Part shown: piece after piece, positions 577 to 46,410 of the stretch
Numbering within the stretch: position 1 is the first letter of the stretch
Layout of the letters: each line of letters starts with the position of its first letter
NCBI GenBank assembly: GCA_963840035.1
Contig: CAWIXE010000001.1
Location: forward strand, 1,152,001 to 1,216,000
Reading direction: 5' to 3'
Origin: a candidate division FCPU426 bacterium
Lineage (GTDB): Bacteria; Oederibacteriota; PGYV01; Palsa-1178
DNA: 64,000 bases
Notes under the pieces: model-generated
Seen by the model: the letters and a program-made list of their open reading frames with translations, nothing else
The model's database searches: none
What the model was told of the DNA's origin: nothing
Program-made: the position numbers and the translations under genes

Positions 577-712
577 AATTTTAAATTTTCTATTTTCAAT
601 TTTCTATTAAGACCATGGATGCCTGAAAAATCAACCGGTTAAGACTTGAAAAATGCATTTTCTTTGGATTATCTGAACTAAATATAAAATTGAAAATATA
701 AAATTGAAAATT
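577..712. repeat. Inverted heptamer-repeat element, family A (TTTTCAA/TTGAAAA), copy 1
   Basis: Arms 577-601 and 688-712 are reverse complements at 23/25. Confidence 0.85.
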
Positions 713-856
713 CGTCATATTTCCGTTGACATTACCCCCGTTTTTTGGTATTTTTCTTTGATTTAGGCTGTTGATTTTAAACGGGTAAAAAAAGGGCGCT
801 GTCCGGCCTTTTACAACGGAGCGAGCAGGACTCGTCTCTATCACAGGAGGAATGAA

Positions 857-2719
857 ATGGCAAATCTGGAACTGTTAAAGAAAAAATGCGGGGACGCGCA
901 TTATAAACGTCTCGAGGCTTTAAACAACCCCACTCTTATGGATTTCGTGGCAAAATACGCTGAAGAATGCGAACCGGATTCTGTTTTTGTATGCACTGAC
1001 TCAAAGGAAGACGAAAAACTGATGAAAAAACTCGCCATAGATAAAGGCGAGGAAATCCCCCTTAATATTGAAGGCCATACCATACATTTTGACGGCATGA
1101 CAGACCAGGGCAGGGACGCGAAAAACACAAAGTTCCTTTATGAAAAAGGAAAAGAGCTCGAAGGCCTGCTCGGTATGGACAGGGAAGAAGGCGAAAAAGA
1201 GATACACGGCCTTTTAAAAGGCATGATGAAAGGCCGGCAGATGCTTGTGCTGTTCTTCTCTTTAGGCCCTGTGGACTCTCCTTTTTATATACCGGCTGTA
1301 CAGGTAACAGATTCGAATTACGTGGCACACTCCGAGATAATATTATATAGAAGGGGATACGAAGGGTTTAAGAAAGCAAAACCGTCCTCTTTCTTCAAAG
1401 TCGTCCATGCCACCGGAGAGACAGTAAACGCCGTAAGTAAAAATGTCGATAAGAGAAGGATCTATATAGATTTAAAGACCGAGACCGTTTACAGCACAAA
1501 CACGCAGTACGCAGGCAACACCGTGGGCTTTAAAAAACTCGCGCTCAGGCTGGCCATACAGAAAGCCTCGCGCGAAGGCTGGCTCGCCGAACATATGTTC
1601 CTGATGGGAGTAAAAGGCCCGCTCGGAAGGAAATCATATTTCTCGGGGGCTTATCCTTCCATGTGCGGGAAGACATCGACTGCCATGGTAGAGGGTGAAA
1701 GCATAGTGGGAGACGACCTGGCTTACCTAAGGAACGTAAACGGAATTGCCATGGCGGCAAACGTGGAAAAAGGAATATTCGGTATCGTTCAGGATATTAA
1801 TCCCAACGGCGACCCGCTTATCTGGAACGTTTTAAACACTCCTGGCGATGTAATATTCGGCAATGTCCTGAATGATAACGGAATACCGCGCTGGCTCGGG
1901 GACGGCCGTGAAAATCCGGCAAACGGGACAAATTTCTCCGGCGAGTGGACGCATGTGAAAAAGGATGAAAAAGGAAATCCGATTCCATACGCGCATAAGA
2001 ATGCCAGGTATTCCATAAGCCTGGAAGCTTTGAAGAATTGCGACCCAAAGCTTAACGACAAAAAAGGCGTTAAGCTCGACGGTATAGTTTTTGGCGGAAG
2101 GGATTCGGATACATGGGTGCCTGTCAGGGAGTCATTTGACTGGAACCACGGCGTCATCACCATGGGAGCGTCCATAGAGTCAGAGACAACGGCGGCTACC
2201 ATAGGCAGCGAAGGCGAGAGGGTGTTTAACATAATGTCAAACATGGAATTCCTTTCCATTCCCATACCTAAGTATATAGAAGACTACCTTCAGTTTGGAA
2301 AGGGCTTAAAGCACGCGCCTAAGATATTCGCGTGTAATTACTTCCTCCGCGACATGCAGACCGGCAAATGGCTCAACGGCGTGAAGGACAAGAGGGTATG
2401 GCTCAAATGGATGGAACTCAGGGCGCATAATAATGTCGAAGCGATAAAGTCCCCGGCCGGATTTATCCCGAAATACGCGGACTTACAGAGGCTCTTCAAG
2501 CAGGTAATGAAGAAAGATTTTACAATCGACGATTACAACAAGCAGTTTATGATTAGGATACCGCAGAACGTGGCAAAGATAGACAGGATTATCGAGATAT
2601 ATACGAACAAGATACACGGCACCCCGAAGATGTTAGTTGAGATATTAAAGCTTGAGAAGGAAAGGTTCCTCGCGCTGAAAGCGGCAAAGGGAGACTTCGT
2701 AACCCCGGATAAGCTGTAG
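857..2719 (+). CDS. pckG: Phosphoenolpyruvate carboxykinase (GTP)
   Basis: Motifs YAGNTVGFKK, WLAEHM, YPSMCGKTST, VGDD, HKNARY, FGGRD. RBS AGGAGG. Confidence 0.95.
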   Translation: MANLELLKKKCGDAHYKRLEALNNPTLMDFVAKYAEECEPDSVFVCTDSKEDEKLMKKLAIDKGEEIPLNIEGHTIHFDGMTDQGRDAKNTKFLYEKGKELEGLLGMDREEGEKEIHGLLKGMMKGRQMLVLFFSLGPVDSPFYIPAVQVTDSNYVAHSEIILYRRGYEGFKKAKPSSFFKVVHATGETVNAVSKNVDKRRIYIDLKTETVYSTNTQYAGNTVGFKKLALRLAIQKASREGWLAEHMFLMGVKGPLGRKSYFSGAYPSMCGKTSTAMVEGESIVGDDLAYLRNVNGIAMAANVEKGIFGIVQDINPNGDPLIWNVLNTPGDVIFGNVLNDNGIPRWLGDGRENPANGTNFSGEWTHVKKDEKGNPIPYAHKNARYSISLEALKNCDPKLNDKKGVKLDGIVFGGRDSDTWVPVRESFDWNHGVITMGASIESETTAATIGSEGERVFNIMSNMEFLSIPIPKYIEDYLQFGKGLKHAPKIFACNYFLRDMQTGKWLNGVKDKRVWLKWMELRAHNNVEAIKSPAGFIPKYADLQRLFKQVMKKDFTIDDYNKQFMIRIPQNVAKIDRIIEIYTNKIHGTPKMLVEILKLEKERFLALKAAKGDFVTPDKL

Positions 2720-2742
2720 CAATGTGTTATGTTTTAGGTTTC

Positions 2743-2767
2743 GTAGGGGCGAGCCGGTGGCTCGCCC
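2743..2767. repeat. GTAG-type REP-like hairpin
   Basis: GTAG-GGGCGAGCC-ggt-GGCTCGCCC. Confidence 0.6.
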
Positions 2768-2874
2768 GGATTTAGATTTAAGGTTTGGCAGCTTTGCCCG
2801 CCGGGCTTTAGCAGAGACGGATTAGGCTGTGCAAAGCAGTTGATTGAAGACCAAAAAAACAAGGATGGTGATTT

Positions 2875-3432
2875 ATGATCAGGACACTTACAGCACCGGT
2901 AAGCATGAGCAGGCAGACAGAAAGAATCATAATGATGGCTATATTTTCAATCCTTACATTCGCGGCGGCCATGATAAGGATCCAGACGCCGTTTACCCCG
3001 GTGCCTTTTACCCTCCAAACATTTGTGCTTTTTCTTTCGGTATATCATTTAAGCGCCAAAGAGAACGGCTTATCACAGGCGTCTTACATACTGGCGGGCA
3101 TGATAGGCGCACCGGTATTCGCGGCCGGATTAACGGGAGCGCTGGCTATTGCCGGGCCGACTGCCGGCTATCTCGCGGGGTTCATTGTGGCAGGCATGCT
3201 CATGTCATTTGCCGTTTCAAAGATAAAGACCCTCACATATTTAAAGGCTGTTGCGGTATTTTCCGCGGGAAGCATGATCATACTTACACTCGGCACAATG
3301 CACCTGGCTTTCGTGTACGGGCTTGGGATTGAAAAAGCATTCGCGGCAGGTTTCGTGCCGTTTATAGCGGCCGAAGCCATGAAAATAGCCGCGGCAGCAG
3401 CTTTTTCGCCACACGCGCCAGCAAATAATTAA
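2875..3432 (+). CDS. bioY: Biotin transporter BioY (ECF S-component)
   Basis: Motifs PFTPVPFTLQT, G.PVFA, GPTAGYLAGF, PFI..EAMK. Hydrophobic, 185 aa. Confidence 0.92.
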   Translation: MIRTLTAPVSMSRQTERIIMMAIFSILTFAAAMIRIQTPFTPVPFTLQTFVLFLSVYHLSAKENGLSQASYILAGMIGAPVFAAGLTGALAIAGPTAGYLAGFIVAGMLMSFAVSKIKTLTYLKAVAVFSAGSMIILTLGTMHLAFVYGLGIEKAFAAGFVPFIAAEAMKIAAAAAFSPHAPANN

Positions 3433-3440
3433 GGATAAAT

Positions 3441-3490
3441 AAAGTGCCGGTAAGACGGGAGTATTTCCGTTGAACCGGCACTTTTGTTTT
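3441..3490 (+). terminator. Probable intrinsic terminator after bioY
   Basis: AAAGTGCCGGT...ACCGGCACTTT followed by a T-rich tract. Confidence 0.6.
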
Positions 3491-3502
3491 TAGTAGATGG
3501 TT

Positions 3503-3609
3503 TGGTAGCCGCAACCTCCATGTCCGCCGAAGCTTCAGCGGAGACGGATTAGGTTGCGAAACGATGGACCAAAGGCCTGCCTTACGCAACCTAAAGGTTG
3601 CGGCTACCA
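3503..3609. repeat. Inverted pair of GTAG REP-like units with a nested 31-bp insert
   Basis: TGGTAGCCGCAACCT (3503-3517) and AGGTTGCGGCTACCA (3595-3609) form a perfect IR. Confidence 0.75.
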
Positions 3610-3667
3610 GCATTTGAAAATGCATCGACAAAAAGTCAGCTATGAATCAAAAAAACAACCTGCTTTG

Positions 3668-3676
3668 TGTTATAAT
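3668..3676 (+). promoter_or_regulatory. Extended -10 promoter of rpoN
   Basis: TGtTATAAT ~30 nt upstream of the ATG. Confidence 0.5.
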
Positions 3677-3705
3677 ATATGTAGAAAGGCGGGGACCGCG
3701 ACAAT

Positions 3706-5226
3706 ATGGACATATCAAACAAGATAAATTTAAACCAGAAACTTGAACTCGGCATCAGGCTCACCCCTGAGATGCGCCTCAAACTCAATATACTTCACGC
3801 CAATTACCAGGAACTCAAGGAAATATTAAAAGAAGAGGAAGAGGTAAATGAGGCCATAGACTCCATAGATGAGGATATCGAAGACGCGGGCGTAAAGCAG
3901 GAAAATGACGAGTCCAAGGAAAATGATTTTGAAGACGAGGAAGACGACATTTATTCCCCCGAGAAAACCGCCCAATCCGCGGAAGGCCCCGAAGACGACG
4001 AGGAAAAGCCCGCGGACTCCACTGAAGAAATAATAATTGACGACAAGGTCGGTCATTTTGACGAGAGTCCCGTGCCGGACACCGGCACCGATGACGATTA
4101 CTACGACAGGGGAGAAACAGAGTACGACCCGTCAGTCGGAAAATTTGAAAATTTCAAGCAGGCGAACATACACGTCGACGAAGAGACAGACTTAAAGACC
4201 GAACTAACAAGGCAGTTAAACCAGGTGGACCTTACTGATGAAATTTACCTTGAGATACAGACCCTTATAGACAACCTCGATGAAAAGGGGTTCCTTTCCA
4301 GGAGTGTTGCCGAGATCGCGGCAGAATCCGGGATTGCCCCTGAAAAACTTGCCGCGGCCCTCGAAATCCTCCACAAATTTGACCCCGTAGGCGTAGGCGC
4401 GCATGACATGCGTGAGTGCCTTTTAATCCAGCTGAAAAACATAAAAATGGAAGAAACCCTTGCCTATAAGATTGTGGACCTGCAGTTTGAATTAATGAAA
4501 AGGCAGAATTACACAAAGCTGGCATCCATATTTAAGGTCAAGGAATCAGACGTAAAAAAAGCCGAGAAAGTCATCGGAAGTCTGAAGCCTTATCCGGGTT
4601 CGGGATTCTCTGGGCTCCGGAACGAATACGTAAAACCGGATATTATAGTGGAAGAGGATGAAAACGGCAAATACAAAGCCGTGGTACCGTGGGATTTCCC
4701 CGAGATCAGGATGTCAAAGCAGTACAAGATCTATAAAAAATCCCCGGTAAAGGAACTCAGGGAATGGGCTGAGAAATATGAGAACAGGATAAAAGCCATC
4801 GCAACTGCCATGGCTGAGAGAAAGAATACTATTGAAAAGGTCGTACAGCAGATAATCGAAGTCCAGGAAGACTACCTGAAAAACGAGGGCGCGGCGTTAA
4901 AACCACTTGTGTACAGGGAAATAGCCCAAAAAACAGGATACGCCGAGTCCACGGTCAGCAGAATAGTATCAAATAAGTATGTTCAGCTGCCTTATGGAGT
5001 CTACCATTTAAAGACTTTTTTCACGCCCAAGGTGGGTGATGTTTCGGCTAATGAACTTATGATGCTTGTAAAACAGCTGATAGAGTCGGAAGATCCGAAA
5101 AACCCTTTAACAGACACTGAAATCGAGAAAAAAATGGCGGACATGGGCAAGCCGGCCGCAAGGCGCACTGTCACAAAATACAGGAAGAAACTTAATATTC
5201 CGCCTGTAAATAAAAGAAAAAGATAG
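3706..5226 (+). CDS. rpoN: RNA polymerase sigma-54 factor
   Basis: Region I Q/L-rich start, acidic region II, DPVGVGA, ESTVSR HTH, RpoN box ARRTVTKYR. Confidence 0.97.
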   Translation: MDISNKINLNQKLELGIRLTPEMRLKLNILHANYQELKEILKEEEEVNEAIDSIDEDIEDAGVKQENDESKENDFEDEEDDIYSPEKTAQSAEGPEDDEEKPADSTEEIIIDDKVGHFDESPVPDTGTDDDYYDRGETEYDPSVGKFENFKQANIHVDEETDLKTELTRQLNQVDLTDEIYLEIQTLIDNLDEKGFLSRSVAEIAAESGIAPEKLAAALEILHKFDPVGVGAHDMRECLLIQLKNIKMEETLAYKIVDLQFELMKRQNYTKLASIFKVKESDVKKAEKVIGSLKPYPGSGFSGLRNEYVKPDIIVEEDENGKYKAVVPWDFPEIRMSKQYKIYKKSPVKELREWAEKYENRIKAIATAMAERKNTIEKVVQQIIEVQEDYLKNEGAALKPLVYREIAQKTGYAESTVSRIVSNKYVQLPYGVYHLKTFFTPKVGDVSANELMMLVKQLIESEDPKNPLTDTEIEKKMADMGKPAARRTVTKYRKKLNIPPVNKRKR

Positions 5227-5251
5227 TGATACTTGTCAATGTCGGTTTTTT

Positions 5252-5276
5252 GTAGCGGGCGCATATCATGCGCCCG
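5252..5276. repeat. GTAG-type REP-like hairpin / possible rpoN terminator
   Basis: GTAG-CGGGCGCAT-atc-ATGCGCCCG. Confidence 0.55.
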
Positions 5277-5481
5277 TTCGCGTTAATGGTATGTAATTAC
5301 AAATGAAGAATGATTGAACTTTAACTAAGTTTAGTGTCAAAAACCACTACGCGGTTAGGTTTTAAAATGTGGAAAGACAGAAGAATAAATGTTGAAATAT
5401 AAAACATACGTTAATTACATAAAATAACCTAAGCATTAATAAAATAAGGGGTTTTATGTCGGAATGTCTTGAGTCACGACA

Positions 5482-5511
5482 CGGACCCGATATGTTCGGA
5501 CCCGATATGTT
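5482..5511. repeat. 15-bp tandem duplication at the left island junction
   Basis: CGGACCCGATATGTT x2. Confidence 0.9.
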
Positions 5512-5513
5512 AA

Positions 5514-6091: not shown

Positions 6092-6152
6092 ATCTGAATT
6101 GTTGGCTGATAGAATTAGCTGGCAACACATATTTATTATTATCAACGATGGC

Positions 6153-10056: not shown

Positions 10057-11754
10057 ATGGAAACCATGGCCTACGACGAGTCCTGCACCTCCTGCGGAGG
10101 GGCGTCAAATAAGCTGGCATCAGATGTCATAACCGGGTATGGTACGATAAACTACCAGTACACGGAAGAAGGCTGGCTCCAGAGCACGCAGTACGTTCCG
10201 GTAGGTTCTATCGCGACGCTGATAGAAAACGAATACGACGCCGGGGGGAATATCATAAACACGGCAATAGATACAAGAACTGTGGCTGAGTACGCGTATG
10301 ATTCAACGAATTTCTTTCAGCAAAGCATGACTGAAAGGATGACAGGGAAGAACAGGAGAATCGATTTTACGTACGACGCTGTGGGCCATAAAAAAAGTAT
10401 CTCATACCCGAACAAAACGCGGATGAACTACGACTATGGCACAGCGTACTGGATGACGAAGGCAGACGGCGTGTATGTAAAGAACGGCGTAGAACAGTTG
10501 ATAAACAAAAACGTAATAACGCAGAGGGACAGCGTGGGGAACATAACACAAAAAGAGATAAACACAGGGGCGGTTTCGTATGTATACGACGACAAATACC
10601 GTCTGACGGGGTACACGAATACAAACGCAAATCCGTCAAGCCAGTCGTTTACGTTTGACTACAGGGGAAACCGTTTAAGCGTGGTTGCCACACCCGGCGG
10701 CACGACGAGTTATACGGTTGGCGATAACAACATGGTAACAGCGGCGGGCGGTGAGAGCATATCGCACGACGGGCGGGGTAATGTGACTGGCAGAGGAAAT
10801 ACGCAGTACGAGTGGGATTATAAGAACAGGCTGGTAAAGGCGGACAAGGAAGGCGTGCAGGAAGACCTTTACTACACATACAACAACGCGGACAGGATGC
10901 TATCCAGGACGAAGTGGAATAAGAAGGTAACGTATTATTATAACGGAAATCAGCTGTTATGCGAGAAGGACGAAACAGGACGTCTGTCAAAAGTTTTTAT
11001 AAACGACAGCGAAGGCCTTCTTGGCTTTACAATACTGAACTACAAGCCAAACGGAGAGTTCTCAAACTACGAGCCGGTGTACTACCTGTTTAACGACCAG
11101 GGAAGCGTAACGACCCTGACAAACGAGGTAGGAAGGCCGATAAAGCACTACCTCTACGACCCATACGGGAACCTGACAAACACCACAACAGACCCGAACA
11201 ACAACTTCACCTTCATAGGGCGGTACGGCGGGTTTAAAGACTGGGACTCAGGGCTGATACAGTTCCAGCACAGGTGGTATGATAGTGCGCTGGGGCGGTG
11301 GATGAGCAGGGATCCGATTGGGGTTAGGGGAGGGGTGAATTTGTACGTATATGGCAATGATGACCCTGTTAATGTCATCGACCCATTAGGGTTGTGTAAT
11401 AAAAAACAAAAAGATGATCCGGAGAGTAAATATGTCAGATGGAATTACTGTGGAAAAGATTGGTCTGCGGGAATACATTGGACAAAAGAAATCCAAAATA
11501 TAGCAAGCTTTGCTGCGATTTATTCTAAGGATCCAATCAATGATTTGGATGACTGTTGCTATCAACATGATGTGTGTGCATATTTAGTTAGAATGAGTGG
11601 CTATGCGCACGGTTCAATTACGGATTGTAATGTGGCGTTAGTTCGTTGTGCGTCAACAAAAATAAAAAGTTACCCAATAGAAGCTAGTGTGATTTTAAAA
11701 GTATTTGAAAGCGACATTCACAAAGGAGATCCGATTTATGGTAAAGACAGATAA
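10057..11754 (+). pseudogene. Rhs cassette 3: longest truncated core + phospholipase A2-like toxin tip
   Basis: Core starts ~METMAYDESCTSCGG. DPLGLC junction. Tip has NYCG...DLDDCCYQHDVC...DCN.ALV.C. Confidence 0.85.
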
Positions 11755-23497: not shown

Positions 23498-23612
23498 TGT
23501 CATTGCGAGGAGGCGTTTTTAGCACTCTGCCGACGAAGCAATCCTGTTGTTTTAGAGGGCGGAGCGAGATTGCTTCGTCACCATGGGGCAGAAACGGTTC
23601 CTCGCAATGACA
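23498..23612. repeat. Nested palindromic element (GTCATTGCGAG...CTCGCAATGAC type)
   Basis: Outer 14-bp perfect IR 23498-23511/23599-23612; inner 12-bp IR 23532-23543/23568-23579. Confidence 0.85.
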
Positions 23613-24180: not shown

Positions 24181-26037
24181 ATGTTCAGAAAAAAAGGGCT
24201 CATATACGCCGGGATTATCCTGGCAATCATTATTATATTTGACGTTTTCTTTTTAAACTCCCTCGTGAAGGCGGCCCTCATTTGGCAGGGCAAAAGCCTT
24301 TTCATGGCAAAGGTAAGCATTGCCTCGGTTAAGATCGACCTGCTGAAGTCTAAAACCACAATAAAAGGGCTGGTTGTGGCTGACAGGAATAAGGAATTTA
24401 AAAATCTTTTTGAGACCTCCGAGATTACCGCGGATTTCATGTTCCTGCCCCTGCTGGAAAAAAAGTTCATCATAGACAATGTTTCGGTGATAAACCTCGC
24501 GGTTGGCACGGACAGGAAAGACTCCGGGTTCCTCGCGCCCGCTGACGCGAAAAAGATAGAAAAAGAAAAGAAAGACGCGAAAAACAGCTTCGCGGCCAAG
24601 CTGCTTGATAAGGCCGCTGACAAGGCCTCAAAAGAGATACAGAAGATGCCTGTGGCGAAATTGTCGGACCTAAAGGACGTCAAGAACCTGGATTATAAAA
24701 AGTATATTAATAAGGAAACGCTTGAGTCATATAAAGCCGCGGATTACGCCGCTAAAAACGTTACGGCCGCCAAAACAGCCGCTGAAGCCTCGATTAAAGC
24801 CGTGGACGCTGACGCCAAGTTAAAGGCAGTCCAGGAATCCATAAAGAAGGTAAAGGAAACAAAGATAGCAGGAGTGCAGGACCTGGCAAAAGGCCAGCAG
24901 GCTTTGGCGGAACTTGATAATATCAAAAAGACTGCGGACGAACTGACTAATAGCGTAAATAAAGCCAAAGACGACGTAAAGGCAGTGGCTGATGTAACAA
25001 AAGCCTCTTATGACGCAATTAACGAAGGCAAGGAAAACGACATAAAAAAAGTGATGTCAGCGGTAAATATAAACATTCTTGACGCCAAATCAGTTGAAAA
25101 AGCCCTCATAGGCCCTGTGTGGTATGACAAGGTAACCAGGATACTGCAGTATATTGACATGGCGAATAAATACATTCCCGTGATGAAAAAGAAGGATAAG
25201 AAGGCCACGGTGGTTAAAAGGGGCGTGGGAAGGGAAGTAATTTTCTCATATGACGCCAGGTATCCGGGATTCTGGATAAAAAAGATGGTCCTCTCTGTTG
25301 ACGGGAAAAACAACACTGCTGGTTATTTCATGCGCGGCGAGATAGACGACATCGCCATAGAGCAGGGGATTACAGGAAAACCGCTTAAGGTGTCGCTGCA
25401 GCTTGACAATCCTTCGCAGACAATTTCCGTAAAAGCATCCATATACCACGTGGAGGAGCGCGATGATTCCATAGTTGTTGAAGTGGCCAACCTGCCGGCG
25501 TCGGCAGCCGGGCTTAATAAGGTGGATTTCGGCGGCATCACCATACCAAAGGCAAAAACCGCGTACATGATAAAAGTACGCTCGACAGACGCGGCGCTGA
25601 CGGTTAACGGCGAAATAAGGGAAAAGGACGTGGAGTTCGCTTCCGCGGATAAGAACAACCTGACATACCAGGTGCTAAGCAATATTGACGCTTTCCAGAT
25701 AGATATCATGATGAGGGGCGCGGAAAAGGATTCATCCATCAGCGTCACATCGGACATAGGCGAGAGGCTGAAAAAAGCCGTGGATAAGATATACGGAAAG
25801 AAAGTGGCCGAAGCAAAAGCCGCCGTGAACAAGGCCATAGAGCAGGCGATAAAGGACAAGATGAAAGAGGTAACAAAACTGGCTGACGGAGCAAAAGCCG
25901 AAGCGGACAAACAGATAAAAGGGATAACGGACAAGATATCCGCCAACAATAAGGACATAGACAAAGCCAAGTCCGACATAACTAAAAAGATAGCCGGCGG
26001 CGGGACGAATAACCTGCTGAAAGGTTTATTTAAGTAA
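24181..26037 (+). CDS. TIGR03545-like protein (N-terminal TM, AsmA-like start, coiled coil)
   Basis: AKVSI..V, NLFE, PLLEKKFII, YP.FWIK. Follows the TIGR03546-like gene. Confidence 0.72.
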   Translation: MFRKKGLIYAGIILAIIIIFDVFFLNSLVKAALIWQGKSLFMAKVSIASVKIDLLKSKTTIKGLVVADRNKEFKNLFETSEITADFMFLPLLEKKFIIDNVSVINLAVGTDRKDSGFLAPADAKKIEKEKKDAKNSFAAKLLDKAADKASKEIQKMPVAKLSDLKDVKNLDYKKYINKETLESYKAADYAAKNVTAAKTAAEASIKAVDADAKLKAVQESIKKVKETKIAGVQDLAKGQQALAELDNIKKTADELTNSVNKAKDDVKAVADVTKASYDAINEGKENDIKKVMSAVNINILDAKSVEKALIGPVWYDKVTRILQYIDMANKYIPVMKKKDKKATVVKRGVGREVIFSYDARYPGFWIKKMVLSVDGKNNTAGYFMRGEIDDIAIEQGITGKPLKVSLQLDNPSQTISVKASIYHVEERDDSIVVEVANLPASAAGLNKVDFGGITIPKAKTAYMIKVRSTDAALTVNGEIREKDVEFASADKNNLTYQVLSNIDAFQIDIMMRGAEKDSSISVTSDIGERLKKAVDKIYGKKVAEAKAAVNKAIEQAIKDKMKEVTKLADGAKAEADKQIKGITDKISANNKDIDKAKSDITKKIAGGGTNNLLKGLFK

Positions 26038-26039: not shown

Positions 26040-26170
26040 AATTTTGAATTTTCAATTTTATATTTTCAATTGGAGATAATACCCGGTTGCCTTTATTCGA
26101 TGTTATTAAACTAACAGCATGTTGGCTATTTTACTATTAATTGAAAATATAAAATTCAAAATTGAAAATT
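26040..26170. repeat. Inverted heptamer-repeat element, family A, copy 2
   Basis: Arms 26040-26071 and 26139-26170, 30/32 inverted match. Confidence 0.88.
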
Positions 26171-26205: not shown

Positions 26206-26266
26206 TTTTTAGCGGTAAATCCAGAATTTAGAATCCGGAATATAGAATACATTTAAAGGATATTAT

Positions 26267-29200
26267 ATGGCTTTCAGCTATAACCTTAACATAAACGATG
26301 AAGAGACAAAAACCGCCATTAAAGACTTATATGGGGCGGAATCCACGGATGAGTTCTTCTCATCTGTTAAGTTCAATTCCCTTGAGTTCGCAGACAATGA
26401 AAGCGGCGAGATACTCGTAAAAATGGACGTTTTTAAGCCGTTTAACACAGCCCAGCTCGAGAAATTCGGGGCCTATATCCTCAAATCAGCCAATAAAACA
26501 CCTGTATTCCGTTTTAATTTCTCTAAAGATATGAAACCAGCGGCTATTATAAGCTCTTTCTGGCCCTTTTTTAAGGAACTGCCGGGCGTTGAAAAGACGT
26601 GGCTTGATTACGCTGTGGCTGAAGAAAAAGATGGCGCTGTAGTCGTTAAATGTTTTACGGACCTGGCTTACACAAAAATAACGGAAAAGAAAGCAATTCA
26701 GCAGTTAAAGAAGAAAATGGCGGAGTTTGGCGGCGGGCCCGTGGAAGTTGCCGTTGAAGTGGCTGAAAAGACCGAGGCCGATAAGAAGCCGGTAAATATT
26801 GTAAGGACCATGGAAGTCGCGAAACCCAAAGTCCCGCCCAGCAAGATACTTAAGGATGAGGAAATACCCGGAGAAAAAATAGCCCTTGAGAATATACTGG
26901 GTAAGGGCAAGTATGTCATAGAAGGCAGGGTCTTTGTCGCGGATGAAAAGAAGTACTGGCGTGACATGCAGGGCAGGGAAGGCAATAACGCGAAAATAAT
27001 ATTTTTTTATATGACAGATGAAAAGGAAACCATAAAACTTTCATGCTGGCTTGATGATGATGACGGATTATTTAACGCGATAAAGGACATAAAATATGCA
27101 AGGGTCCTTATTGAGGCGGATTATTACCCCAATGAGATGGAGATAACCGGCAGGGTCAAGAAAATGCAGCTGACAAAAGAGCCGGTTATGGCTGATACGG
27201 CACCGGAAAAAAGGGTGGAACTCCACGCCCACACGCAGATGAGCGCCATGGACGCGCTTATGAGCGTGAAGCAGTACTTAAGGACAGCCGCGGCCTGGGG
27301 GCACCCGGCAGCCGCCATAACAGACCATGGAGTCGTGCACTCATACCCGGAAGCGTATCAGATAGTAAACGACAGGAAATCACCCCTCGCGCTGAAGCTG
27401 ATACTCGGCATGGAAGGCTATCTTATGGAACAGAACATTAAGATAGACAGGGAGGATAAGGATGGGGAAAAATTCACGGAAAAACCTTTTCATATGGTAC
27501 TGCTGGTAAAAAACAGCGCGGGCCTGCGCAATCTCTACAGGCTGGTATCGCTTTCGCACCTGGAGCATTTTTATAAGAAACCTAACATTCCCCGTGAACT
27601 TCTGATGAATAACAGGGAAGGGCTGCTCGTCGGGTCCGCGTGTTATTTGGGAGAGGTTTACCAGGCTATACTTAACAGGAAAACCCCGGAGGAAATAAAA
27701 CAGATAGCTTCGTTCTATGATTACCTTGAGATACAGCCAAATGAAAATAATAAGTTCTTAATCAGGTCGGGCAGGGTGGATTCAGAGGACAGCTTAAACG
27801 CCATAAACATGCAGATATGCGCCCTCGGCGCCGAACTGGGCAAGCCTGTGGTCGCCACCGGCGATGTGCATTTTTTAAAACATGACGATAAGATCTACAG
27901 GGAAGTAATAATGTCGGGCCAGGGATATGATGATATCGGAGATACGGGTACCGCGGACTTATCCTTCAGGACCACGGATAACATGCTAAAAGAATTCATG
28001 TACCTTGGTTCGGAAAAGGCCCATGAGGTCGTGGTGAAGAACACCAGGTTAATCGCGGACATGATAGAGGCAAACATCAGGCCTGTGCCCAAGGATTTAA
28101 ACCCGCCAACCATAGATAACTCGGACGATGAGATAAGGGACGCTTCATGGAACAGGGCCGCTGAGATATACGGAATAAACCTTCCTGAGATAGTCAGGGA
28201 GCGGGTGGACAGGGAATTAAACGCCATCATAGGAAACAAGTATTCGGTACTTTACCTGATCGCTAAAAAAATGGTGGAAAAATCCAACAGCGACGGTTAC
28301 ATCGTAGGGTCCAGAGGCTCGGTTGGGTCTTCAATGGTGGCGTTCCTTTGCGGCATATCAGAAGTAAACCCCATGCAGGCGCACTATGTGTGCCCCAAGT
28401 GCCAGCACAGTGAGTTTGTCCATACCGACCTGGTAGGCGTGGATCTGCCGGAAAAGGCCTGCCCCGTGTGCGATGAAAAGACCGTTAGGGACGGTTTTAA
28501 CATTCCTTTTGAGACATTCATGGGGTTCAAAGGCGAAAAAGTGCCTGATATAGACCTTAACTTTTCCGGGGAATACCAGGAAAAGATACATAAATTCATA
28601 GTCGAGCTTTTCGGTTCGGACAAGGTCTTCCGCGCCGGCACAATAGGCACCATACAGGAAAAGACCATAAAAAAGGAATACATACCCAAGTATGAGGAAA
28701 AGACCAAAAGAAAGCTAAAGGAAGCGGACAAGGAACGCGTGGCCAAGGGGTGCGCCGGGGTAAAAAGGTCCACAGGCCAGCACGCGGGCGGCATGATGCT
28801 TGTGCCTAAGGCAAAGGACATATACGATTTTACGCCGGTCCAGAACCCGCCTAATGATTTTCAGACAATTACAACGCATTTTGATTATGAATACATACAC
28901 GACGCGCTGGTAAAAATTGACGCGCTCGGACATGACCTTCCGACAAGCTTAAAAAGGATATGTGAAGAGTTAAAAATTAACGTAAATGACATACCCTTAG
29001 ACGACAAGGACACCATGAAGCTCTTTTCCGGGGTGTCGGTGCTGAAGGTGGACCCGAAGAATTATACGCCGCCCATAGGCACGCTTGGAGTGCCTGAGTA
29101 CGGCACCAGGTTTACCAGGGAAATGCTCGCTATGACAAAGCCAAAAACATTCAGCGAGCTTGTATATGTGTCGGGGCTCTCCCACGGCACTGATGTGTGG

Positions 29201-29992: not shown

Positions 29993-30115
29993 AAGGCAAT
30001 TACTAATTACCAATTACTAAGTTACCAATAAAGGTGCGTGATCGCGTTTTATTATAATAATGCGTGAAAACACTCCTTGATTCGTAATTAGTCATTATAA
30101 ATTAGTAATTGCCTT
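29993..30115. repeat. Inverted heptamer-repeat element, family B (AATTACT/AGTAATT)
   Basis: AAGGCAATTACTAATT / AATTAGTAATTGCCTT is a perfect 16-bp IR with 7-bp periodic arms. Confidence 0.8.
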
Positions 30116-40758: not shown

Positions 40759-40844
40759 TGGTGCCGGAGGTCGGACTCGAACCGACATGCCGTTGCCGGC
40801 GGAGGATTTTGAGTCCTCTGTGTCTGCCATTTCACCACTCCGGC
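40759..40844 (-). tRNA. tRNA-Leu(CAA)
   Basis: 86-nt cloverleaf: acceptor GCCGGAG/CTCCGGC, anticodon loop CTCAAAA, long variable arm, TTCGAGT, encoded CCA. Confidence 0.97.
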
Positions 40845-40865
40845 GCATGTCCGGCCGTGTAAGAT

Positions 40866-40893: not shown

Positions 40894-40981
40894 TAATCAA
40901 AAATAAAGGGTTATTGTATATAATCGTGTGTAAATTCATATTTGCTTATATTAAACGTGTTAATTTTCTTCTACCACTGCT

Positions 40982-41068
40982 CCCCCTCTCCTCTTAGGAG
41001 AGGGGCTGGGGTGAGGTGAAACCAATTGTCTTATTCCCCTCACCCTACCCTCTCCCAAGGGGAGAGGG
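40982..41068. repeat. Inverted pair of CCCTCACCC..CCCTCTCC..GGAGAGGG palindromic units
   Basis: Two hairpin units at 40982-41016 and 41036-41068 in opposite orientation. Confidence 0.8.
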
Positions 41069-41121
41069 AAAAAATAACAAAACAATTTACACACAATTCT
41101 TGACAATATCAAATAAAGGCG

Positions 41122-41220
41122 GATTCTGAATTCTGGATTTTAGATTCTGGATTAATGGCGTTTTAGGGGAGTTTAGCAAATAACCAGTGTTGTTGGGTTT
41201 TTAATCCGGAATTCAGAATC
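41122..41220. repeat. Inverted heptamer-repeat element, family C (ATTCTGG/CCAGAAT)
   Basis: GATTCTGAATTCTGGATT... / ...AATCCGGAATTCAGAATC. A lone arm also sits at 26219-26248. Confidence 0.75.
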
Positions 41221-41294
41221 TATATAACATATTTCTTCTTGCTATTTAAAATCTAAAGTTTATAATTTAATATATTACAAATTCAGGAGGAATC

Positions 41295-42959
41295 ATGAAA
41301 AAAACCATTATTTTAACGCTTTTTACCGTGTTGTGGCTGTCATCATTATTTGCCGCGCAGGAGGCTGTAAAGCTGAATCCTGCCGTATCCAACGTTACTG
41401 TTTACCAGGGACGCGCGCTTGTGGAGCGGTTTGCTTCTGCGGACATCGCTGCGGGGGAAACTTTGTTTACCGTTACGGGGCTGCCTTACGATATGTACCA
41501 GAATACTTTGCTGGTTTACAAGAGCGATAAGGACGCGCCTTTCCTTATTAAGGAATTTGATTTTAAGGATGTAGAGGCTAACGTAATTCTCAGCGCCGAG
41601 GAAAAGAGGCTCAAGGCAAAACTTGAAAACCTCAATGAACTCTTTAAGTCAAAGCAGGACAGGATAGAGGTATTGAAGAACAAGATGAAGTTTTACGCAG
41701 ATATGTCAGCCAAGACATCCGGACAGTCAGGGGAGGCCATGGGCGTAAAGCCGGTTGACGTGAAAAATGCCGGGGATGTGCTCTCATTTATAAGCGCCGG
41801 CATAGAAGCCGCGCTTAAGGAAAAGCGTTCATGCGAGAACCAGATGATAAAGATACAGGACGACATAAACATAACGCAGTCGGAACTTTCAGAACTCTAC
41901 ACGCGCAATACAGGCACCGCAAAAGTGCTCTACATCAGGCTCGCGTCAAACAGCCAGGTTAAGGCGGGCATAAAGCTGAAATATATTGTGCCGAACGCGG
42001 GATGGTTTCCTTCATACGAGTGCAATTATGATTCTGCGGCGGGCGTCATAGAAGCCAAGTATTACGCGAATATACAGCAGTCCACCACTGAAAAATGGAG
42101 CAATACAAAACTTTCAATTGCCACGGGTTCTCCATTATATGATGTGACCCTGCCCATAGCCCGGCCGTGGGTGTTATCAGAACAGCAGCAATACCGCGCA
42201 AACGGAAACGCGGGCATGATGATGAAGGCGGCGGCAGCCCCTATGGCCCTGAGTGAGGAAGCCTCCGCTGATTCGGCTGTAATGGAAAAAAGAAAATACG
42301 AAGCCGCACCGGAGGCAGTGGAAAACTACCAATACGACGAACTGGGCATAAAGGCAAACCTGACAGGCAGGTTTGATGTCTTAAATACCGGCGAAGTGAA
42401 AAAAGCCGCGCTCAAAGAAATGAAGCTAAAACGCAAGGAGACATTCTACACGGCGATACCGTCGCAGAATGACTCGGCTTATCTTACGGTTGAGTTTGAA
42501 AATAACGACGATATGATAATGCTTCCCGGCGAGACCACTCTTTACATTGACGGCAACTACTCCGGAAAAGCCTCCATCGGCGAGAACATCCGCAAAGGAC
42601 AGACCGTAAAGTTCGCCTTCGGCATTGACGAGAACTTAAAGATTAAAAAGGAAAAACTGCAGGAGAAAAAAGGCGAGAGCGGAATTTTCGGGTCCGAGAG
42701 GAAGGTTGACTTCGGCTACAGGCTTACAGCCGAAAACTACAAGGCAAAAGAGGCTGTCATATATATAAAGGAACCGCTTCCGTTTTCAGAGGATGACAGG
42801 ATAAAAGTCGAGCTTTATGAGACGAGCGATAAGGTTACGTCCGAAGAGGACCGCGGGGTGAAAGTGTGGAAGATTACGTTAAAACCCGGCGACAAAAAGG
42901 AAATAACCTACCGGTTCAGGGTGACCTGCCCTAAGGATATGGCTGTAAACGGGCTTTAA
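41295..42959 (+). CDS. DUF4140/DUF4139 (MuiA-like) secreted protein
   Basis: Signal peptide, VTVY..RA.V.R, Y.V.NAGW.P.Y, Q.T.E.W, FGID. Confidence 0.87.
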   Translation: MKKTIILTLFTVLWLSSLFAAQEAVKLNPAVSNVTVYQGRALVERFASADIAAGETLFTVTGLPYDMYQNTLLVYKSDKDAPFLIKEFDFKDVEANVILSAEEKRLKAKLENLNELFKSKQDRIEVLKNKMKFYADMSAKTSGQSGEAMGVKPVDVKNAGDVLSFISAGIEAALKEKRSCENQMIKIQDDINITQSELSELYTRNTGTAKVLYIRLASNSQVKAGIKLKYIVPNAGWFPSYECNYDSAAGVIEAKYYANIQQSTTEKWSNTKLSIATGSPLYDVTLPIARPWVLSEQQQYRANGNAGMMMKAAAAPMALSEEASADSAVMEKRKYEAAPEAVENYQYDELGIKANLTGRFDVLNTGEVKKAALKEMKLKRKETFYTAIPSQNDSAYLTVEFENNDDMIMLPGETTLYIDGNYSGKASIGENIRKGQTVKFAFGIDENLKIKKEKLQEKKGESGIFGSERKVDFGYRLTAENYKAKEAVIYIKEPLPFSEDDRIKVELYETSDKVTSEEDRGVKVWKITLKPGDKKEITYRFRVTCPKDMAVNGL

Positions 42960-42962
42960 TGC

Positions 42963-43060
42963 GAATTTTAAATTTTATATTTTCAATTTTCAATTAACGG
43001 CAGAGTACGGGGAGTTTTTTGGTTTTTAATTGAAAATTGAAAATATAGAATTGAAAATTC
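42963..43060. repeat. Inverted heptamer-repeat element, family A, copy 3
   Basis: Arms 42963-42997 and 43026-43060, 33/35 inverted match. Confidence 0.88.
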
Positions 43061-43151
43061 ATAGACTAATCCCCACAAAAATGATATATTATTGATTAAT
43101 TTGTGCGGGAAAATACTGCGTGGAAACGCGCTTAAATCATTGGAGGGTCAT

Positions 43152-44522
43152 ATGTTTATCAAACAGAATCACAAAAAGTACCTGCTCACTGAAAAGGACA
43201 TGCCTTCGGCCTGGTATAATATAATGGCTGACATGAAGAATCCCGTGGAACCGCCGCTTCATCCGGGAACGGGAAAACCTGCCGGGCCGGATGATCTGGC
43301 GCCGATATTCCCCATGGAGTTAATCGAGCAGGAAATGACCATGAAAAAGCACGTGGACATACCCGGCGAAGTCATAGATATTTTAAGGCTCTGGAGGCCG
43401 TCGCCGCTGTACCGCGCTTATGCCCTTGAAAAAGCCCTGGATACACCGGCTAAGATCTATTATAAATACGAAGGCGTATCTCCCGCCGGAAGCCACAAGC
43501 CGAACACGGCCATAGCGCAGGCATATTACAATAAGAAAGCGGGCATTACAAAACTTACAACAGAAACCGGAGCGGGGCAGTGGGGATCGTCAATATCATT
43601 AGCCTGCGCGCTTATGGGGCTTGAAGTGGAAGTATACATGGTTAAAGTGTCATACGAACAGAAACCATACAGAAAAATGATGATGAATACATGGGGAGCG
43701 CAGGTATTTGCCTCGCCTTCAAACAGGACAGAAGCCGGAAAAAAAGTGCTGGCAGAGGACCCGAATTCACCGGGCTCGCTTGGCATAGCCATTTCAGAAG
43801 CGGTGGAAGCGGCGGTAAAGGGAAAGAATTCCAGGTACTCACTGGGTTCGGTATTAAACCACGTAATGCTGCACCAGACGATAATAGGCATAGAAGCGCA
43901 GAAGCAGATGAAGATGGCGGGAGATTATCCTGATGTGGTCATAGGCTCCTGCGGCGGCGGCTCGAACTTCGCAGGATTATCTTTTCCGTTCCTCCAGGAC
44001 AAGCTTACCGGGAAAAAACCGAAGCTCCGCGCCGTGGCAGTGGAACCAACAGCCTGCCCTACACTCACTAAAGGCGAATTCGCGTATGATTTTGGCGATG
44101 AGGCAGGAATGACGCCGCTTCTTAAGATGTACACGCTCGGGCATAAATTCATGCCAAGCGCCATACACGCGGGCGGATTAAGGTATCACGGAATGTCCCC
44201 GATAGTTTCCAGGCTTTACGCGGATAAGATTATCGAGGCAGTGGCCGTGGATCAGATACCGGTATTTGAGGCGGCGATACTTTTCTCCAAAACAGAGGGG
44301 ATTATCCCGGCGCCGGAATCGGGCCACGCGATAAGGACGGCCATAGACGAAGCGCTTGACGCGAAGAAAAAAGGCGAGAAGAGGACGATACTCTTTAACT
44401 TAAGCGGACACGGGAACTTTGACCTTGGCGCTTATGACGCGTATCTCAGCAAAAAATTAAAAGACGTGCCCCTTTCGCAGGAAGCCATAAATGAAGGGTT
44501 AAAGAGCATACCGAAAAGATAG
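43152..44522 (+). CDS. trpB2: Tryptophan synthase beta chain 2 (stand-alone TrpB2)
   Basis: [47 protein letters not shown]. Confidence 0.95.
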
Positions 44523-44524
44523 AA

Positions 44525-44629
44525 AATTTTAAATTTTATATTTGAAATTTTAGATTGGAATGCAGGACAGGGACTGTCTGATTGTCTTCCCTTCCTTAAT
44601 TGAAAATCTAAAATTGAAAATCTAAAATT
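44525..44629. repeat. Inverted heptamer-repeat element, family A, copy 4
   Basis: Arms 44525-44556 and 44598-44629. Confidence 0.8.
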
Positions 44630-44643
44630 GATCCGGGGTGGTT

Positions 44644-45870
44644 ATGAAAAGAATATTAATGCTTGTTATTGCCGTATTTACGGCGTTTTCAGCTGTTTTT
44701 GCGGCTTTGGGCGGCGTACCTTTTGATGTGCTGCATAAGACGCTCGGCGCTCGCAATTTAGCCATGGGCGAGGCCGCGGTGGCAAATTGCGGCGGGCCAT
44801 CCACTATCCTGTGGAATCCGGCAGCCCTGGACTCGGTCAATAAAAATACGGTATACGCGGGCGCTGAGATGCTTTTTGAGGGAGCGCACATGGAATACAT
44901 TTCTTACTACATGCCCGTGGGAAAATACGGCGGGCTCGCGTTCCTCGCGGGGTTTCAGGGTTACGGCGGATATGAGGCTGCCGACGGCGGCGGTATAGAA
45001 GGGGTTTTAACCGACGACATAAAAGATATTTTTATTTCAGCCGGTTACGGCAAGTCATTAATAGCCGGGGTGCAGGCGGGCCTTACGGCCAAGGTTCTTT
45101 TAAAATCCCTTCCTGACGGGACATATCCCGCTTTTAATTCGGACATAAGTTTTTTCAAGTCGTTTGACATGATAGACATCGGGCTCGCGTTTAAGAACAT
45201 AATCCCGATGGCTGTCGCGTACTCTTCCCAGGATGAGAAATTTGTTTCCACCATGAGGCTGGGATTCGCCTTAAAACTGCTGGACAACAACCTGAAAATC
45301 GCGGCTGACATGGAAAAATATTTCATAAAAGAGAATCCGGTATTTTTTGCCGGCGCGGAATACAGGATAATAAACGCGCTGTGCGTGCGCGCAGGTTATA
45401 ATACGCTCTCAGAAATAAGCGGAGGGATCGGGTTAAACTATGAGAATATCGGCGTGGACTATGCCGTCGTGTATAATGAGCTTGGCTTAAGCCATAAAGC
45501 CGGCATCTCATATGCCTTCGGCGGTTACGGCCTGGAATTAAAGGCTGAGCCTTCGACATTCTCGCCAATGGGGGCGTATAAAAAGACTTATATAAGGGTT
45601 TTAGCGTCGTCAAAATATGAGATGTATAAGTGGTCCATAGACCTTAAAAACAGCTCCAGCGAGCTCATACGGAACTGGTCAGGGGCAGGCAAGCCTGACG
45701 ATGAGGTTATCTGGGACGGATTACGCACGGACGGAATGCCATATCCTGACGGCATGTATAACGCGGTCTTAACCACGGTGGATGAAAATGATGTGACCTC
45801 AAAATCAGATGTAATAACAATACAGCTCGGGGGGAACGAGTCGAAGTCGCTTCCGCTGTTTGGGGAGTAG
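44644..45870 (+). CDS. PorV/PorQ-like outer-membrane beta-barrel fused to an FlgD-Ig domain
   Basis: Signal peptide, GAR.LAMG.A.VA....WNPAAL, GAEY...RAGY, DYA, then FSP...WDG...PDG.Y. Confidence 0.75.
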   Translation: MKRILMLVIAVFTAFSAVFAALGGVPFDVLHKTLGARNLAMGEAAVANCGGPSTILWNPAALDSVNKNTVYAGAEMLFEGAHMEYISYYMPVGKYGGLAFLAGFQGYGGYEAADGGGIEGVLTDDIKDIFISAGYGKSLIAGVQAGLTAKVLLKSLPDGTYPAFNSDISFFKSFDMIDIGLAFKNIIPMAVAYSSQDEKFVSTMRLGFALKLLDNNLKIAADMEKYFIKENPVFFAGAEYRIINALCVRAGYNTLSEISGGIGLNYENIGVDYAVVYNELGLSHKAGISYAFGGYGLELKAEPSTFSPMGAYKKTYIRVLASSKYEMYKWSIDLKNSSSELIRNWSGAGKPDDEVIWDGLRTDGMPYPDGMYNAVLTTVDENDVTSKSDVITIQLGGNESKSLPLFGE

Positions 45871-45874
45871 AACG

Positions 45875-45975
45875 AATTTTCAATTCTAAATTTTCAATTT
45901 TCAATTAAAAAAGGCCGGTTAATATAACCGGCCTTTTGTTTTTTATTGTTAATTGAAAATTTAAAATTGAAAATT
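45875..45975. repeat. Inverted heptamer-repeat element, family A, copy 5, enclosing a bidirectional terminator
   Basis: Arms 45875-45908 and 45949-45975; inner AAAAGGCCGGTTA-a-TATAACCGGCCTTTT hairpin. Confidence 0.85.
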
Positions 45976-45979
45976 ATGT

Positions 45980-46303
45980 TTAAATCTGTTTCTTCCTTCT
46001 GTCCGCCGTGACTGTTTTTCTTTCTTTCCTTCTGTCCTTGGCGTAGAGCACAAAGTTAGCGCCTGTCTTCCTGTAGAGCTGGCGTGTGTGTTTGTCAAAG
46101 TATAGGGTTCCCTGAACCAGCAGGAAATTCTTTGAGAATTTATCCTCGGCGCGTTTTCCCTCTTCCACGGATTTTTGTTTTGTGCGCCTGTCGTGGCGCA
46201 TGAATACAAACCGGTTGCCCAGGTTCTGTACTATGACTTTGTCCTTATTGTCGTAATAGATGTTTCCTTTTAAATGCGTGTAGCGCGGGTCTGATGCGGC
46301 CAT
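45980..46303 (-). CDS. Small basic protein with internal duplication and DRR motifs
   Basis: AAAGGAG RBS; two G..Y.D....G..FV....DRR halves. Confidence 0.75.
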   Translation of the reverse strand: MAASDPRYTHLKGNIYYDNKDKVIVQNLGNRFVFMRHDRRTKQKSVEEGKRAEDKFSKNFLLVQGTLYFDKHTRQLYRKTGANFVLYAKDRRKERKTVTADRRKKQI

Positions 46304-46317
46304 AGTAAGTCTCCTTT

Positions 46318-46410
46318 AATTTTATATTTTCAATTTTAAATTTTCAATTAAACCCTTTAAAACAGCCTGTTTTGTATTTAATTGAAAATTTAAAATTCAG
46401 AATTGAAAAT
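46318..46410. repeat. Inverted heptamer-repeat element, family A, copy 6
   Basis: Arms 46318-46352 and 46377-46410 fill the gap between the PilZ stop and the next RBS. Confidence 0.85.

Follow-up and report, generated by a model that had tools for sequence, protein, structure and literature searches.

Inverted heptamer-repeat elements at gene ends of a candidate division FCPU426 bacterium and their probable relation to a cassette enclosing TIGR02436 genes

The six family A elements of the window

The window is a 64-kb stretch of the genome of a candidate division FCPU426 bacterium, in which an earlier note had placed six copies of an inverted heptamer-repeat element (family A). All six were found at the coordinates given there, and all six rank among the longest inverted repeats of the window. 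The arms are AT-rich tandem heptamers. Alignment of the 12 arms showed a length of 33 nt, made up of four full 7-mers and a fifth ATT core, with 18 invariant columns, and the loop between the 33-nt arms measured 28-70 nt. The three to five units described earlier are therefore a fixed four units plus a fifth core, except in element 5, whose right arm contains three good units.

The refined limits, to which no strand is assigned, place each element at a gene end. Element 1 (577-712; left arm 577-609, 70-nt loop, right arm 680-712) lies after the stop of an ORF with a FlgD-like domain, which ends at 572, and a PEP carboxykinase gene starts downstream at 857. Element 2 (26040-26170; left arm 26040-26072, 65-nt loop, right arm 26138-26170) follows a stop at 26037 and precedes the DNA polymerase III alpha gene, which starts at 26267. 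Element 3 (42964-43059; left arm 42964-42996, 30-nt loop, right arm 43027-43059) follows the DUF4139 gene, which ends at 42959, and its right arm stops 2 nt short of the -35 box of a promoter-like site of the sigma-70 type (43062-43090, plus strand) that belongs to a trpB-like PLP enzyme gene; a similar sequence is kept in relatives that are free of the element. One 546-nt contig, from four DNA runs that cover little of the stretch, has flanks about 92-94% identical to those of element 3 and 105 other letters in its place, and was not recovered in a second alignment. Element 4 (44525-44629; left arm 44525-44557, 39-nt loop, right arm 44597-44629) occupies the whole gap from the trpB-like stop (44522) to the next ribosome-binding site; its left arm contains the words of a sister sub-family and scores best with the profile of that sub-family. 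Element 5 (45875-45975) fills a convergent gap, and its loop holds a terminator-like hairpin (45909-45937, plus strand), which bears out the claim that one copy wraps a terminator. The right arm of element 6 (46318-46411; left arm 46318-46350, 28-nt loop, right arm 46379-46411) overlaps the stop of a minus-strand PilZ gene, and the next start is 14 nt away. The distance from stop codon to outer arm end in elements 1 to 6 was 4, 2, 4, 2, 4 (also 4 on the opposite side) and -1 nt, as expected from the earlier statement that one arm always lies within about 5 nt of a stop.

All six elements are flanked by protein-coding genes and none lies inside an rRNA gene; the sole Rfam match in the window was one tRNA. 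Arms of sister families, which the earlier note had overlooked, were detected at 26218, 29998-30110, 38098, 40661 and 41123-41273, likewise with no strand assigned. The pair at 29998-30110 (profile group 2) lies after the DNA polymerase gene and has an AT-rich palindromic centre, a single right arm of group 9 (26218-26248) directly precedes the ribosome-binding site of the polymerase gene, and the pair at 41123-41273 combines a left arm of group 9 with a weak right arm upstream of the DUF4139 gene.

Arm geometry, placement and occurrence in relatives

The whole genome, which is 98% complete, was searched with profiles of the arms. Family A arms above 18 bits numbered 254, while two window-shuffled genomes gave no family A arm above 12 bits. 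About 1,200 arms (1206 in the polarity count) in 20 profile groups were found, and they occupy 665 of the 1965 intergenic gaps of at least 30 nt; genes were called with a codon-score caller, which gave 2848 genes and overlooked some, among them an IS30 gene and the four-helix-bundle gene at C1:780744. Of 194 family A arms, 177 had exactly five ATT cores at 7-nt intervals, and a set of 193 arms comprised 145 distinct sequences. The conserved span was 29-37 nt in 20 of 22 profiles, and the geometry was nearly the same in all groups, whatever their base composition. Inverted pairs joined arms of the same family in 334 cases versus 35 mixed pairs, where the chance of the same family is about 0.055.

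The enrichment after stop codons proposed from the window holds genome-wide. Among 69 stop-side pairs, 64 lay within 15 nt of a stop (null mean 37.9, maximum 47 in 2000 placements), although this null treats promoters as available space and the enrichment is therefore overstated. The offsets from the stop had two peaks, -2 and +4, and 87 of 103 fell between -2 and +5. Polarity was fixed: the outer end was at the stop in 459 of the 1206 arms and the inner end in 35, so that the left arm follows a stop and the right arm precedes a ribosome-binding site, a promoter or an opposing stop. In convergent gaps with arms at both stops, one family was present on both sides in 17 of 18. Creation of the stop codon by the arms was also considered and was rejected; the C-terminal tails equalled those of the orthologue in 75 of 105 arm-bearing genes, which was no different from 284 genes without an arm.

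Element presence is lineage-specific. Of 119 orthologous junctions that are armed here, 6 carry such arrays in relatives and 113 are without arrays in G003 or G007. Element 4 is absent from the same junction in six family-level relatives that keep the junction. The family A pattern had no match in 7 genomes of the same family; of 23 genomes at a greater distance, 3 gave 1-4 loose matches. Presence and absence at orthologous sites, a comparison that the earlier note had called for, thus revealed many missing elements; however, the compared relatives belong to other genera, so the absence is not strain-level polymorphism. Close relatives were sought in metagenomes with the protein encoded at 44644, and none was confirmed among 141 candidate stretches. 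Orthologous junctions that are bare have a median length of only 41 nt, and 31 of 119 measure at most 25 nt. Loop and ancestral gap were compared at 55 junctions (rho 0.27, p 0.047; mean similarity z 0.84 versus 0.36 in controls), which lends weak support to the idea that loops may derive from ancestral gap sequence.

Association with TIGR02436 four-helix-bundle genes

The earlier note had likened the elements to 7-mer arrays around four-helix-bundle genes of the TIGR02436 type, and this link was right. At 11 GTDB loci, family A arms are separated by about 400-450 nt; of these loci, 8 enclose a TIGR02436 gene above the cut-off (7 full length and 1 truncated), 2 enclose RNase P RNA (in two Tidjanibacter genomes) and 1 is without a long ORF. 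An associated gene family therefore exists, and loaded copies with the family A heptamer occur in other phyla. In the genome studied here, 3 of 8 TIGR02436 matches lie between inverted arms of dispersed families, with the same polarity as in the empty copies, and the other 5 have no inverted arms of these groups; a loaded copy is present in only 3 of about 20 groups. G003 lacks the loaded copy of C1:786298 at the corresponding junction. The family A pairs of this 98%-complete genome included no loaded copy and no enclosed gene, and remnants of four-helix-bundle genes were found in no loop, those of the six elements included, so that loss of a gene from every copy is at most a possibility. Copies with an ORF in the spacer, which the earlier note had suggested looking for, occur here with a four-helix-bundle gene in three sister families. 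Inverted arms of four 7-mers and a fifth core, in one polarity, are common to loaded and empty copies.

The relation between protein and core was analyzed in a 40-protein tree. All 10 proteins with ATT-core arms, 7 of which had been picked by DNA pattern, fell in one clade of 12 rows (100/100), and in the other 28 rows none of 13 upstream arrays had ATT. A search by protein alone, with a single protein as query, gave 24 loci, of which 23 had an upstream 7-mer array; the core was ATT in 15 (six of one near-identical lineage, and one the query itself) and AAT in 7, and the other four letters varied. Since protein and arms travel together, co-inheritance alone could yield this link between clade and core. 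Array density was correlated with the number of four-helix-bundle genes in 12 genomes (rho 0.77), which are partial samples of related genomes; G025, with 9 such genes, showed only 5 arrays in a sample of 80 kb. The solved homologues 2gsc and 2rld have five chains in each entry, and excerpts of one report term the Xanthomonas protein a homopentamer (PMC4990558).

Other candidate partners were rejected. The genome has no match to GxxExxY genes, and PF00078 (reverse transcriptase) likewise gave none; for RAYT, the 1.5 kb on either side of each of the eight Y1_Tnp matches contained no family A arm. Family A was tied to no transposase, reverse transcriptase or target duplication. A literature search, confined to main texts and with thin coverage of subscription papers, found no paper that links this protein family to heptamer arms. 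We consider it rather probable that the elements are gene-less members of a cassette enclosing a TIGR02436/PF05635 gene, and that each arm is likely a five-site binding track for the predicted five-subunit ring of that protein.

Folding, spread and significance of the arms

Stable folding was predicted for five of the six elements (z -4.7 to -10), while element 1 gave only z -1.96, and the terminal inverted repeats are predicted to form a stem of about 28-30 bp. The complementarity of family A arms was 26.3 (of 31) within an element and 26.6 between different elements; in comparison with permuted pairs, same-element complementarity was lower in 4 of 9 families and higher in 1. Sense-strand G-U wobble was favoured in only 2 of 9 families tested, and paired arms showed no covariation, so selection does not act on a perfect long stem. 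This bears on the reading, which we regard as fairly unlikely, that the arm pairs are host RNA-processing stems (of the RNase III type) or aids to stability or termination selected on mRNA, with the four-helix-bundle gene a mere passenger. Consistent with it, the arms coincide exactly with the borders of untranslated gaps, and in 308 pairs terminator-like hairpins were mostly in the loop (18, versus 6 that separate the stop from the arm and 2 that follow the element). Other loop contents fit as well, namely IS30 in two loops here and the RNase P RNA in Tidjanibacter; an RNase III gene is present in the genome, and the Coxiella intervening sequence is described, in excerpts of PMC4990558, as cut by RNase III in its 28-bp stem. 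Yet such stems need neither a period of 7 nor five cores, complementarity within an element does not exceed that between elements, most family A mismatches (174 of 226) are not G-U, 107 arms have no scored partner (some because a short partner was missed), and relatives manage without arrays.

A non-autonomous element of the REPIN or MITE kind, whose full length is copied by a transposase from another locus (one of the eight Y1/RAYT genes, for example), would account for hundreds of dispersed inverted doublets after stop codons, and two sub-family copies 4.4 kb apart do share a near-identical 46-nt loop in opposite orientation, while a central palindrome is common to 10 of 356 loops genome-wide, including the pair at 29998-30110. 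We regard this origin as very unlikely for family A: several of the Y1 genes, which stand apart from its arms, have their own flanking GC-rich repeats, target-site duplications of 2-8 nt were no more frequent in 55 pairs than with permuted flanks, BLAST matched only 8 of 128 loops to another loop, and the arms themselves are mostly distinct. Because the loops are nearly all unique and target-site duplication is lacking, the non-autonomous mobile element inferred in the earlier note, if it means plain copy-paste, is unsupported for family A. Neutral slippage repeats filtered by selection into the sole free space are hardly credible and this reading is largely refuted: the short bare junctions place any insertion near a stop, some arms have expanded into long perfect arrays and the placement null overstates the enrichment, but slippage expects a variable unit number instead of five cores, does not yield same-family inverted pairs, one polarity or a tie to one protein family, and does not fit the two offset peaks.

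If the elements are gene-less members of a TIGR02436 cassette, each subunit of a pentamer may read one core, while the four intervening letters would drift and be shuffled. Family A could be served in trans by the ATT-clade protein encoded at G000:C1:780744. Once transcribed, the two arms would form a 31-bp stem with regular mismatches, which could loop out the intervening content (gene, terminator, REP or IS30), as in the 23S rRNA intervening sequence. The spread of the arms is the least certain step; most likely it would involve protein-assisted recombination or conversion between arms, which would place an arm pair at both edges of an untranslated gap. More broadly, and only tentatively, four-helix-bundle pentamers may specifically recognize five 3-nt cores at a 7-nt spacing, the core being determined by the protein clade, and may drive an undescribed kind of dispersal, free of transposase and reverse transcriptase, in which freshly shuffled arm pairs are written at gap edges so as to enclose the host sequence already there, and older arms are replaced. 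Such a system would resemble the REP/RAYT partnership, with a ring that is not catalytic, and would possibly be a common cause of the intergenic 7-mer excess of bacteria.

To our knowledge, no catalytic activity is known for the four-helix-bundle protein linked to the arms. Avd of diversity-generating retroelements has the same pentameric four-helix-bundle fold and binds nucleic acid, but no reverse transcriptase was found here. Cyanobacterial STRR also have a 7-nt period and are described as tandem runs without fixed five-core arms. Unlike MITEs, the elements have no target-site duplication, and their interiors are not near-identical except for the loops with the shared centre. The 23S rRNA intervening sequence of Coxiella burnetii, according to excerpts of PMC4990558, has an S23p (PF05635/TIGR02436) ORF within terminal inverted repeats that form a 28-bp stem, and tandem heptamers upstream of its start codon. 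It resembles the loaded form, and the stem predicted here is of similar length, whereas the six elements are intergenic, between protein-coding genes, ORF-free and of a kind present in hundreds of copies. Like REP, REPIN or BIME with RAYT (in the parts of PMC2817692 and PMC12306157 that were available), they are lineage-specific intergenic inverted doublets close behind stops, tied to a small trans-acting protein family, and REPs within 15 nt of a stop are reported there to stall ribosomes; however, the arms are AT-rich tandem heptamers and not self-folding GC-rich palindromes, and the RAYT genes of this genome lie apart from family A.

Intergenic heptamer repeats of four units have so far been explained case by case, by quadruplexes or translational regulators. 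G-rich heptamers of Xanthomonas and Nostoc were attributed to G-quadruplex formation (Rehm et al. 2015, PMC4692102), and the term helix bundle does not occur in the text of that paper. Family A has the same unit count without G-tracts, about 20 groups coexist here and their geometry does not depend on base composition, so quadruplex formation is ruled out as the general cause. In Beggiatoaceae, intergenic 7-mers are abundant, come in two to six units with a polarity towards start codons, and were proposed as sites of an RNA-binding regulator, with S1, Csp and CsrA as candidates (MacGregor 2015, PMC4679880); in the available part of that report they are almost only direct repeats (one inverted set) and no four-helix-bundle candidate is named, whereas family A consists of inverted pairs. 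The genome studied here, with its many arms and groups of near-uniform geometry, is an unusually clean test set, and the analysis names one protein, one core and one spacing as the target of a binding assay. If the interpretation is true, the PF05635/TIGR02436 proteins, which are widespread, pentameric in solved structures and function-less so far, would be joined with intergenic heptamer repeats, and recognition of the repeats by the protein would likely explain a long-puzzling class of bacterial DNA repeats.

Six inverted heptamer elements in the window

All six family A elements described in the earlier note, in which 7-mers with a 3-nt ATT core form a left arm and an inverted right arm around a loop, were present in the window (577-712, 26040-26170, 42964-43059, 44525-44629, 45875-45975 and 46318-46411), and each began no more than 4 nt from a stop codon, close to the ~5 nt given there. 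The 12 arms aligned to one common design of 33 nt, made up of four 7-mers and an additional fifth ATT core; 18 alignment columns were invariant. In predicted folding, five of the six performed far better than shuffled sequences, while element 1 was marginal. The loop of element 5 holds a terminator-like hairpin, and one arm of element 3 ended 2 nt ahead of a promoter-like -35 box.

Right arms of family A (43030-43058, 44600-44628 and 46382-46410) and mirror arms resembled an outward-pointing sigma-70 promoter, matching the consensus at as many as 10 of 12 letters with 17-nt spacing, and 7 of the 10 promoter-like matches in window 42900-46500 began in arms. This likeness is a by-product of the 7-nt period and is impossible for the GC-rich sister families, which use other arm words; genes downstream of the promoter-like family A arms could be driven from them. 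The window also contained a REP-type GC-rich inverted repeat (23517-23594), a tRNA (40762-40844) and, after it, a 25-nt inverted repeat (40912-41108) in a region also matched by contigs of other organisms, and a plus-strand ORF of 3787 codons (47778-59141).

Arm families across the genome and its relatives

The genome holding the window (G000; 3.46 Mb, contigs C1-C3) contained 254 non-overlapping family A arms scoring above 18 bits with the arm profile, and two shuffled genomes gave none above 12 bits. Left-right pairs no more than 300 nt apart numbered 74, with a median loop of 37.5 nt, and 107 arms were without a scored partner, partly because the partner is short. Exactly five contiguous cores were counted in 177 of 194 arms (four in 5, six in 3, a broken core in 9). 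Enrichment after stop codons extended genome-wide: 64 of the 69 stop-side pairs lay within 15 nt of a stop (null mean 37.9, maximum 47 in 2000), although this null treats promoters as available space, so that the enrichment near stops is overstated. Of the strong arms, 103 began no more than 40 nt from a stop, and 87 of these started at -2 to +5; the distance from the other arm end to the start codon fell in a cluster at 7-19 nt or in a broad range beginning near 40 nt. Genes were called with our own gene caller. Arms as makers of the stop codons were considered and rejected. The ATP synthase delta subunit gene (C2:58919-59585) was split over two overlapping reading frames, owing either to a frameshift or to an error in the assembly.

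A motif-free scan found 1014 intergenic period-7 arrays versus 11 in shuffled intergenic DNA; period 6 gave 130 versus 31, period 5 was at chance level, and periods 8, 9, 10 and 11 gave 7, 31, 3 and 2 arrays. Data-derived profiles placed 1206 arms, 51 of them overlapping called genes, in 20 groups, with one match in the shuffle; not all groups were clean, some including run-away tandem arrays and one combining two families. Adjacent left-right arms belonged to the same family in 334 cases and were mixed in 35, and same-family right-left neighbours numbered 44. Outer arm ends abutted stops 459 times and preceded starts 216 times, versus 35 and 39 for inner ends. Of 22 profiles, 20 had a conserved span of 29-37 nt. 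Slippage does occur where neighbouring units are identical, as is shown by long run-away arrays of a single 7-mer (C1:245189-245530, C1:792528 and C2:1359230), some of which had grown out of an arm.

The 193 family A arms comprised 145 distinct sequences assembled from a limited vocabulary of 7-letter words. Several of these words were 2-3 times commoner than independent positions predict and occurred in different slots; this word excess and these slot changes suggest that units were shuffled at fixed length. Arms matched at 26.3 of 31 within a family A element and 26.6 between elements. The within-element match was lower than permuted in 4 of 9 families and higher in 1, and only 1 of 199 arm pairs was perfect. 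Mismatches were mostly non-G-U, with G-U on the sense strand favoured in 2 of 9 families. The cores, rather than a perfect stem, are conserved. Perfect palindromes can be lost during replication, which could contribute to the imperfect matching.

The family A pattern was not found in the seven same-family genomes searched. In 1.0 Mb of sampled sequence from two relatives, G003 and G007, 333 orthologous junctions were compared: 119 had arms in G000, the relative carried a period-7 array at only 6 of these, and its gap was shorter (median 41 versus 109 nt). Because genes of some relatives overlap at these sites, the arms were likely gained in the G000 lineage rather than lost from relatives. Array density followed the count of four-helix-bundle genes in 12 related genomes (rho 0.77; 53-800 kb samples), with G025 as an exception.

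Four-helix-bundle genes between the arms

G000 had eight TIGR02436 matches, and PF05635 marked the same places. The suggested link to these genes held: three of the eight lay between inverted arms of dispersed families with the polarity of the empty pairs (C1:780744, a family A variant; C1:786298; C2:519718). The C1:786298 cassette was missing at the same junction in G003. No gene-enclosing copy of family A proper was found in G000, nor a gene remnant in any loop. The same heptamer does enclose the gene elsewhere: when GTDB was scanned for paired family A arms at a distance of about 400-450 nt, 11 loci were obtained. Of these, 8 enclosed TIGR02436 over the cut-off (Patescibacteria-group, Bdellovibrionales and Bacteroidetes records), two RNase P RNA and one no long ORF. 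The two RNase P RNA genes, tightly bracketed by the arms, were in Tidjanibacter genomes (L050:701-1188 and L055:701-1190). In one four-helix-bundle gene clade (G000 C2:73399, C2:1127095 and C3:492520; loci L015, L019, L021 and L030) there was no downstream arm, the repeat element preceding the gene instead of enclosing it.

All 10 ATT-armed proteins of a 40-protein tree, seven of which had been selected through the DNA pattern, fell in one 12-row clade, and the remaining 28 rows had 13 upstream arrays, none with ATT. Searching with one clade protein, a selection free of the DNA pattern, gave 24 metagenome loci (six rows from one lineage, one being the query); 23 had upstream arrays (ATT in 15, AAT in 7) and 19 an inverted partner arm. 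Both solved homologues contained five chains per entry.

Loops, mechanism and comparison with known repeats

Only 8 of 128 loops had a BLAST match to another loop. Of 308 pairs, 18 had a terminator-like hairpin in the loop, 6 had one separating the stop from the arm, and 2 had one beyond the element. Arms occurred at both stops of 18 of 144 convergent gaps, with one family on both sides in 17 of the 18. Two group-2 loops held a transposase gene judged IS30-like from sequence rather than by family search (C2:827247-828436 and C3:228238-229400). A central AT-rich palindrome, like a two-way -10 box, was common to 10 of 356 loops under arms of three groups (window 29998-30110; C1:775829, C1:780258, C3:38659 and C3:39173; also L108 near 11190-11300). 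Part of it was present at the orthologous G003 junction under arms of a fourth group, so arms can differ around a retained centre. Loops in general might perhaps represent the ancestral gap.

The arms have fixed geometry, polarity, pairing, gene-loaded kin and lineage specificity. We infer that the five cores likely correspond to the five subunits of the protein's predicted ring, which putatively binds one core per subunit. Paired arms would likely loop the untranslated gap out of the transcript; RNase III is present in G000. For the placement of pairs, protein-assisted recombination between arms is favoured; insertion followed by gene loss would be an alternative within the same model. No target-site duplication was found at arm pairs and no reverse transcriptase in G000, and its RAYT genes lie away from family A arms.

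The Beggiatoaceae heptamers are direct repeats with a polarity towards start codons (PMC4679880), and ribosome stalling is possible at REPs near stops (PMC12306157). Xanthomonas repeats have four units and form inverted pairs near stop codons, explained by quadruplexes (PMC4692102), which family A cannot form. The Coxiella intervening sequence has the four-helix-bundle ORF, a stem and heptamers, but is located in rRNA (PMC4990558). No published link between the four-helix-bundle family and dispersed heptamer pairs was found in the mostly non-subscription literature searched. The six elements are real, their occurrence is not random, and they are linked to a protein family that is uncharacterised. 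They represent a variant of two kinds, intervening sequences and intergenic heptamers, and do not belong to the REP, MITE or quadruplex repeats.
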